Origin: Eledone cirrhosa
Taxonomy: Eukaryota
Length of the DNA stretch: 64,000 nt
Assembly (NCBI GenBank): GCA_964016885.1
Contig: OZ024743.1
Location: 95,356,001-95,420,000 of the forward strand
Direction of reading: 5' to 3'
Part shown: positions 39,089 through 39,995 of the stretch, one piece after another
Numbering within the stretch: the first letter of the stretch is position 1
Layout of the letters: every line of letters begins with the position of its first letter
Made by a program: the position numbers and the translations under genes
Notes under the pieces: model-generated
What the model was told of the DNA's origin: nothing
The model's database searches: none
The model's input: only the letters and a program-made list of their open reading frames with translations

Positions 39089-39995
39089 GAGAGAGAGAGA
39101 GAGAACACTGGAAGGTAATATCCGTAGTAGTTGAGCACTCAGTGCATGGGACGAGTTTGGTAGAAGTAGTAACACAACAGTTAGTTCACCATTCCGAGAA
39201 CAATTGTTTCACCTTAGCGGATCTTCAGCTCGGACCGAGCTGAGTCCGAGCTGAAGATCCGCTAAGGTGAAACAATTGTTCTCGGAATGGTGAACTAACT
39301 GTTGTGTTACTACCTATATATACACACACAGACACACACACACACATATATATATATATATATAAAGCGAAGATAATACGTCTTTATGTGGAGCGCTGAG
39401 AACAATTACACGCAAAGACTTTAATCCGTTATTTTAATATATATATATATATATATATATATATATATATATATATATATATATATATATATATATATAT
39501 GTATATATATATATAGATAACATATATATATATATATATATATATATATATATATATATATATATAGGTAATATATATATATATATATTACCTATATATA
39601 TATATATATATATATATTAAAATAACGGATTAAAGTCTTTGCGTGTAATTGTTCTCAGCGCTCCACATAACGACGTATTATCTTCGCTTTATATATATAT
39701 ATATATATATATATGTGTGTGTGTGTCTGTGTGTGTATATATAGGTAGTAACACAACAGTTAGTTCACCATTCCGAGAACAATTGTTTCACCTTAGCGGA
39801 TCTTCAGCTCGGACTCAGCTCGGTCCGAGCTGAAGATCCGCGCAAGGTGAAACAAATGTTCTCGGAATGGTGAACTAACTGTTGTGTTACTACTTCTACC
39901 AAACTCGTCCCATGCACTGAGTGCTCAACTACTACGGATATTACCTTCCAGTGTTCTCTCACTCTCTCTCTCTCTCTCTCTCTCTCTCTCTCTCT
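39089..39995. repeat. Nested palindrome with four hammerhead motifs (39194-39233 minus, 39246-39285 plus, 39773-39812 minus, 39825-39865 plus)
   Basis: Outer arms about 39089-39437 and 39617-39995 around (TA)n; inner palindromes 39166-39313 and 39745-39893; CCGAG-CTGAAGA-T-CC(GCTAA)GG-T-GAAA-CAATTG-TT-CTCGG. Confidence 0.92.

Follow-up and report, generated by a model that had tools for sequence, protein, structure and literature searches.

Four hammerhead motifs at an Eledone cirrhosa locus explained by a Penelope-like stub, probably duplicated once in mirror image

Within the Penelope-like elements (PLEs), the Hydra clade has been defined by DKT, RWK, a CxCX5C linker, CxxC and CxH around conserved E and N, the lack of a CCHH motif, a length of less than 3 kb and (TA)n targets, and an inverted 5′-truncated copy combined with a one-sided tail is described as typical of these elements (Craig et al., 2021, PMC8557442). 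For Penelope-13_HM, hammerheads on both strands are reported in the same work (PMC8557442). In metazoan genomes, minimal PLE hammerheads have been found as opposite-strand pairs 100–700 bp apart, which were ascribed to truncated PLEs, and their activity in vitro is low and restricted to dimers (Cervera and De la Pena, 2014, PMC4209133). In the case of PAc, the Poseidon element of Anolis carolinensis, the one-sided tail is explained by two start sites of the reverse transcriptase (RT), hammerhead cutting was dispensable for insertion in vitro, and the Anolis hammerhead required protein to cut (Frangieh et al., 2024, PMC11167929). Animal non-LTR retrozymes are arranged as head-to-tail tandems, have canonical hammerheads and give rise to circles of about 170–400 nt (PMC7229834; bioRxiv 10.64898/2026.07.22.740005; PMC11722881). 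Finally, inversions templated by fold-backs have been described in yeast, as has the attack of nucleases on AT/TA hairpins (PMC11724301, PMC12972899).

The locus compared here with these systems lies in a window of 64,000 nt from Eledone cirrhosa (contig OZ024743.1), i.e., the whole stretch of DNA that was analyzed; coordinates are positions in this window and genome-wide searches refer to the 3.0-Gb assembly. Quite probably, the locus represents a head-to-head Penelope-like stub within an older Penelope-type element, which subsequently underwent what is likely a single mirror-image duplication by template switching between TA tracts, with hammerheads predicted to be inactive. Judged from sequence, its four motifs are accounted for by an ordinary inverted insertion and a later single local duplication, which are independent of each other.

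In the assembled sequence, the locus (39089–39995) is an outer inverted repeat with arms at about 39089–39437 and 39618–39995 and a (TA)n axis at 39437–39617, corresponding to the (TA)n-centered inverted repeat of about 900 bp described in an earlier note which had been made from the letters of the window. Each arm also contains, as the note had it, an inner palindrome with back-to-back type I hammerheads, the first one at 39161–39235/39244–39318 (75-nt arms, 97% complementary, 8-nt gap) and the second one at 39745–39893. The four cores have a 6-bp stem I. On the plus strand, C3 is at 39251 and 39830 with predicted cuts after 39280 and 39860, and on the minus strand at 39228 and 39807 with predicted cuts at 39199 and 39778, bearing out the two hammerheads per strand and their spacing of 580 and 579 nt, respectively. 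The self-complementarity ascribed to the intervening sequence is likewise evident, as the 580-nt piece between the plus-strand cuts folds at −409 kcal/mol (z −46, none of 100 shuffles as stable), far beyond chance. The few differences between the arms that had been pointed out amount to three places in about 295 aligned bases when excluding microsatellites, the lengths of which are unequal as well. These are CAATTG to CAAATG at 39857, GCTAA to GCGCAA in loop II near 39841 and a single base in the host segment; two of the three lie within the last plus-strand hammerhead, where the mutation of CAATTG already noticed means loss of the palindromic stem III. The outcome with hammerhead models is divided in that four type I cores can be located, whereas Rfam at gathering thresholds gives no match in the whole 64-kb window, the minimal motifs being below curated thresholds. 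Besides microsatellites, no tandem arrays were found at the locus, and the hammerhead arrangement is inverted. Within the central TA tract, a small palindrome (39565–39592) resembles the end of the stub short arm and may be a trace of additional template switches.

The inner palindrome and its one-sided extension of about 60 bp belong to a dispersed Penelope-like retroelement, of which they constitute the 3′ end. Searching the genome with 39095–39320 gave 2659 candidates, and 40 of 40 scored places also match in reverse orientation, for which this query itself selects. The exact 30-mer of the hammerhead matches the genome at 733 places, compared to none for a control. In the first 100 of these matches listed, ten back-to-back pairs were counted by hand with spacings of 36–3276 nt, hence forming a continuum, and the other pairs within 4 kb are one convergent and one tandem. 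The palindrome center is different in each of 29 distinct short insertions and consists of family upstream sequence or small templated pieces. Both arms of one insertion have the loop II type in common in 29 of 29 cases and agree in all three markers in 24 of them, with mean arm differences of 4.2 within versus 6.2 between insertions (p 2e-5). Since junctions are unique and the arms of one insertion are most alike, each palindrome was likely made anew, so that the inner palindromes appear to be fresh products of one source each and not the result of copying an existing palindrome whole. The start of the hammerhead recurs in short additional copies in the junctions of loci L004, L012, L017, and L018 and at window 39236–39243, suggesting templated end joining or RT jumps. 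Longer relatives end with the tail of about 60 bp in 18 of 29 cases and without it in 11. Both family ends close in a GTGT..C(C/T)AC-like word before TA (39290–39313 and, on the minus strand, 39101–39115), a candidate RT start signal. A depth of about 4000 for single 31-mers compared to 6–14 in the flanks, together with the 733 exact 30-mer matches and one match in 800 kb of unselected DNA, points to a copy number of the stub family in the thousands; an estimate of tens of thousands from summed depth was rejected, as the sum counts overlapping words.

RT and GIY-YIG frames of up to 591 aa are found in twelve stretches of 8–9 kb around the longer relatives, and in the eight loci scanned for motifs the frame stops 160–189 nt (about 186 nt) upstream of the hammerhead. 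By motif, the parent has an RT followed by a C-terminal GIY-YIG domain (YRDD, IYE..YVG) upstream of the same hammerhead, in line with the derivation of the minimal Penelope-type motifs from pLTRs assumed in the note. The arrangement expected of endonuclease-bearing PLEs is also seen in the 5′ truncation, the inverted 5′-truncated copy and the one-sided tail, as well as in the minimal type I hammerhead in the pLTR, the layout of which matches rows in File S2 of Craig et al. (PMC8557442); the hammerhead sequence of the stub family is absent among those in that file. The stub long arm shares 121 of 131 aligned bases with the 3′ end of L064, a relative that carries the ORF. The insertion is almost certainly an ordinary stub of a Hydra-type PLE. 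A longer 5′-truncated member of the stub family, ended by (TA)n inside the hammerhead, is present at window 27146–27420 and led to the longer copies. Three RT-like frames in the window (19048–20286, 29335–30741, and 52467–54123) were judged by eye as two Penelope-type-like and one LINE-like.

Regarding the clade, RLRWR, SDKT, YRDD, CSCRKPEAC, CGLC..E, and CPH are found across various copies at the eight scanned loci, with SDKT in four, CSCxKPEAC in seven, CGLCIDE in six and CPH in all eight. The cysteine pair of a CCHH motif is expected between the IYE and YVG halves of the endonuclease. In the parent, no cysteine is present there, fitting absence of this motif. A parent length below 3 kb is indicated by longest pairwise matches of 2.35–2.53 kb and by one tandem pair 2532 nt apart, and stub-family insertions are flanked by TA tracts, which fits (TA)n targets. 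At the position where Craig et al. (PMC8557442) give RWK, RLRWR is found in two of the eight loci, those where the pattern matched. Pfam and PDB searches with the parent protein yielded no informative match. In the search for RT reference proteins, 680 homologues were found, nearly all of them unnamed. The parent matches the Hydra clade, as assigned from motifs rather than from a tree. A first guess, the Neptune clade, was dropped because the linker is CxCX5C and not CX2-5CxxC.

The left stub splits a host element into 38765–39074 and 39364–39437. The first part, on the minus strand and with its long end at 38765, derives from a second Penelope-type family, of which it represents the 3′ end, with matches of 79–90% to relatives at 56221–56495, 57852–58052, and 58851–58991 and at 11 further genomic loci. 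The host-family copies at 56221–58052 and 58851–58991 show a long end, an inverted part and a GIY-YIG-like frame, the latter at 56496–56963 in the copy 56221–58052. A hammerhead-like motif of this family reads CAGAAGA for CTGAAGA in the copies seen (window 38950, 56370, and 57990; loci L004 and L024). The stub is framed by a 12-bp target duplication, the identical 12-mer occurring at 39063–39074 (plus strand) and 39364–39375, and the uninterrupted relatives are continuous across the site. At the insertion site, (TA)n(GA)n at 39073–39106 also forms the outer breakpoint of the duplicated segment. The long arm of the original stub (39101–39235, minus strand) comprises the hammerhead with C3 at 39228, the pLTR end and the one-sided tail at 39101–39160. 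It meets the short arm (39244–39318, plus strand), with the hammerhead at C3 39251 and a pLTR end lacking the tail, at a head-to-head junction of the two 5′-truncated copies, where 8 nt (39236–39243) repeat the hammerhead start and likely are a templated insert. The right copy of the target duplication is followed by the host remainder, which closes with the host’s own short inverted end at 39419–39437.

Beyond the central (TA)n, which is both axis and inner breakpoint of the outer palindrome, alignment of the outer arms identifies 39618–39995 as the inverted duplicate (minus strand) of 39089–39437. It consists of a host piece (39618–39692), the short arm with the minus-strand hammerhead at C3 39807 (about 39740–39814) and the long arm with the plus-strand hammerhead at C3 39830, which bears CAAATG and the altered loop II (about 39823–39958). 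The duplicate ends in (TC)n(TA)n at 39955–40075, where single-copy sequence resumes. The left arm is the original because its stub has the target duplication and relatives are continuous across the site, while the right arm is later because it repeats the stub, the right duplication copy and the remaining host sequence, the left part of the host being absent from it. A 28-mer spanning the stub junction and a 30-mer spanning the host junction each have exactly two matches in the genome, both at the locus. As these locus-specific junctions are found only here, the 900-bp unit has not spread, and a mobile 900-bp composite was rejected on the same grounds. Hence, as to the genome-wide copies of this architecture considered in the note, the inner stub is dispersed but the whole unit exists at one locus only.

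For the first step, the shape of the insertion is shown by the relatives, while the enzymology is modeled by analogy with the Anolis element. The GIY-YIG endonuclease would nick AT-rich DNA, and the RT would start at either of two internal sites, resulting in one arm with and one without tail. Two cDNAs from the same source, ending just upstream of the hammerhead, would then be joined head to head, giving rise to the 12-bp target duplication. In the second step, a strand whose end lay in the central, self-complementary (TA)n might have folded back on itself, copied about 350 bp up to the next TA tract and then rejoined the original TA tract.

In line with such a fold-back, both outer breakpoints are within TA-containing tracts. 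An inverted copy of the sequence flanking one side recurs on the opposite side at 8 of the 747 TA tracts present in 800 kb of unselected DNA, compared to 13 of 5000 in a mismatched-pairing control, corresponding to about 2 expected of 747 (p about 0.001, calculated by hand). The arms of these eight fold-backs are 45–343 bp long and 92–100% identical. Only the longest one, L127 (343 bp, 96.9%), is as long as the locus arms, and its arms resemble a common repeat, so that it could be two insertions. Both outer ends are in microsatellites, as the two-switch model has at the locus, in only three of the eight. Short fold-backs at stub-family ends were seen in four of four pattern hits and at L022, and fold-backs are found at 4 of 158 tracts near short stubs (one doubtful), 0 of 92 near long copies and 2 of 182 unselected ones, none of which is a clear enrichment beside the stub family. 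Other doubles with four hammerheads were found neither within 1.5 kb in 28 other short-stub loci nor in four tail-to-tail hits or at L022. An occasional doubled stub is to be expected because there are thousands of stubs, all adjoining TA tracts. A broad literature search, with most subscription papers outside its range, found no paper on a TA-centered duplication of a PLE stub.

Palindromes with complex arms of at least 50 bp are very common, numbering 38 in 264 kb (L077–L096 plus the window), 19 of them with arms of at least 150 bp. TA-bounded direct and inverted micro-duplications are located beside stub-family ends at L160:1500–1800 and L157:1477–1556. At window 8126–8556, a fold-back of an unrelated family has 215-bp arms, a (TA)n end and back-to-back hammerheads with cores at 8272 (minus) and 8403 (plus), and single hammerhead-like cores of other families adjoin TA tracts at 28044–28099 and 59294–59358. 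It is conceivable, albeit doubtful, that TA-centered fold-back is a genome-wide mutational process, affecting about 1% of TA tracts (by extrapolation some 20,000 sites above control) and driven by nicks of the Hydra-clade endonuclease at (TA)n. If so, these retroelements would convert the DNA beside them, their own stubs among it, into long perfect hairpins as a source of dsRNA, and the locus would be a large and well-dated example. Explained by an insertion and a one-off duplication, in contrast, it adds one more case to an insertion shape already in print and matters little.

With a real stub, the outer inverted copy could instead be an assembly or sequencing artifact at a TA-rich hairpin, e.g., due to merged haplotypes or a fold-back read. 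Such structures are known to cause trouble in assemblies (Craig et al., 2021, PMC8557442), and both breakpoints lie in simple repeats. Moreover, when contigs and RAD reads were compared with 38400–40600 and 39745–39955, contigs of three runs from one sample matched both single-copy flanks but did not span the repeat, giving the sequence specific for the second copy no independent support. In all three runs of this sample, 39817–39856 is without cover at 100% identity, which, with repeats being skipped, speaks neither for nor against the second copy; as the junction that both copies have in common is likewise uncovered, the gap does not single out the right one. However, three differences outside repeats and unequal microsatellites distinguish the arms, the sequence returns to a single-copy flank matched by contigs at 40080–40600 without differences, and fold-backs of 92–100% identity recur across the assembly, altogether making an artifact improbable. 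Still less probable is a local retrocopy, in which a left-arm transcript from the central TA to the tail would have been reverse-transcribed from the tail end by the family RT and inserted in inverted orientation into the adjacent TA tract. While the duplicate indeed ends at the tail end of the element, an RT start site by analogy with PAc (PMC11167929), and sits in the preferred target of the family, the copied segment extends past the tail into the (GA)n/(TC)n flank. In addition, although a retrocopy could have landed in any of millions of TA tracts (747 per 800 kb), the sole second copy is adjacent to the first, and similar fold-backs exist at unselected TA tracts away from the stub family. 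Template switching between TA tracts is retained as the likely origin of the right arm.

On both strands, each hammerhead is directly preceded, a few bases upstream, by its own perfect complement, which is transcribed first on either strand because the hammerheads face outward. In equilibrium folding calculations, enforcing stem I while keeping the core open is penalized by 78 and 69 kcal/mol for the two plus-strand motifs, by 78 and 70 kcal/mol for those of the minus strand and by 64 kcal/mol in a prefix ending just past the first motif, compared to 2.0 kcal/mol for a hammerhead without the antisense arm, and the stem I pairing probability in context is below 1e-41. Accordingly, pairing with their own mirror copies is predicted to lock the hammerheads of the locus in an inactive state, in agreement with the worry voiced in the note that the antisense copy might block the ribozyme. 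As a third, computed step, each hammerhead in a read-through transcript would pair with the complement made just before, and any transcription of the locus would yield a long hairpin of double-stranded RNA and not a 580-nt circle. The 580-nt piece folds as a near-perfect hairpin, a trivial outcome of inverted DNA.

The retrozyme-like or ambisense circular RNA source which the note had suggested is therefore not upheld, there being no other genome copy, no head-to-tail units each with a hammerhead, complements preceding the motifs and one lost stem III. Hammerheads in both polarities, as in viroid-like RNAs, are present, but by computation the motifs could not fold and cut in the nascent strand. 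That the unit is transcribed and cut by dimeric hammerheads in both polarities into a rod-like circular RNA of about 580 nt is extremely improbable, for although four correctly spaced cores, an intact minus-strand pair, an isolated motif that folds readily, a rod-like fold and the low dimer activity of minimal PLE hammerheads in vitro (PMC4209133) speak in its favor, the equilibrium costs given above (co-transcriptional prefix included), the single non-tandem locus, the mutated plus-strand motif, the trivial origin of the rod, the minimal PLE type of the motifs and a size exceeding the circles of about 170–400 nt of animal retrozymes stand against it. As a Penelope-like stub that was likely copied in mirror image and whose ribozymes are predicted to be locked, the locus is an ordinary one and not a viroid-like RNA. 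Hammerheads on both strands combined with a rod-like fold arise readily from Penelope-like insertions, and a search of animal DNA for viroid-like RNAs can be led astray by them.

Compared to Avsunviroidae-type RNAs (PMC11722881), the locus is alike in having hammerheads on both strands and high self-complementarity, but it is genomic DNA, known here from DNA alone, with recent near-perfect inverted repeats and every motif placed after its own complement. With animal retrozymes (PMC7229834; bioRxiv 10.64898/2026.07.22.740005) it shares non-coding character, type I hammerheads and a relation to PLEs, whereas these are multi-copy tandems with canonical motifs and the locus is a single inverted arrangement of minimal ones. 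Fold-back inverted duplications (PMC11724301, PMC12972899) resemble it in a local inverted copy via microhomology at a hairpin-forming, nuclease-prone repeat; those are from yeast and mostly 5–34 bp in size, compared to about 350 bp at the locus, where the mechanism is deduced. A one-sided tail and AT-rich cleavage are common to PAc (PMC11167929), which belongs to a different clade and has a hammerhead overlapping the ORF start, while it is located 160–189 nt past the stop codon here. The metazoan PLE hammerheads (PMC4209133) are alike in the extra base after A9, the short helix I and the palindromic helix III region, yet their pairs are 100–700 bp apart and those of the locus, present twice, only 52 nt from start to start. 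The resemblance to the Hydra clade (Penelope-13_HM, Hydra-1_Ajap, and Hydra-1_Obim; PMC8557442) comprises short length, DKT, CxCX5C, CxxC, CxH and (TA)n targets as well as a 3′ hammerhead of the ctgaagat...tgaa type, the inverted 5′-truncated copy and the one-sided tail. The tail is 30–40 bp long in that clade but about 60 bp here, and the copy at the locus has been cut to the last 75–135 bp and then duplicated.
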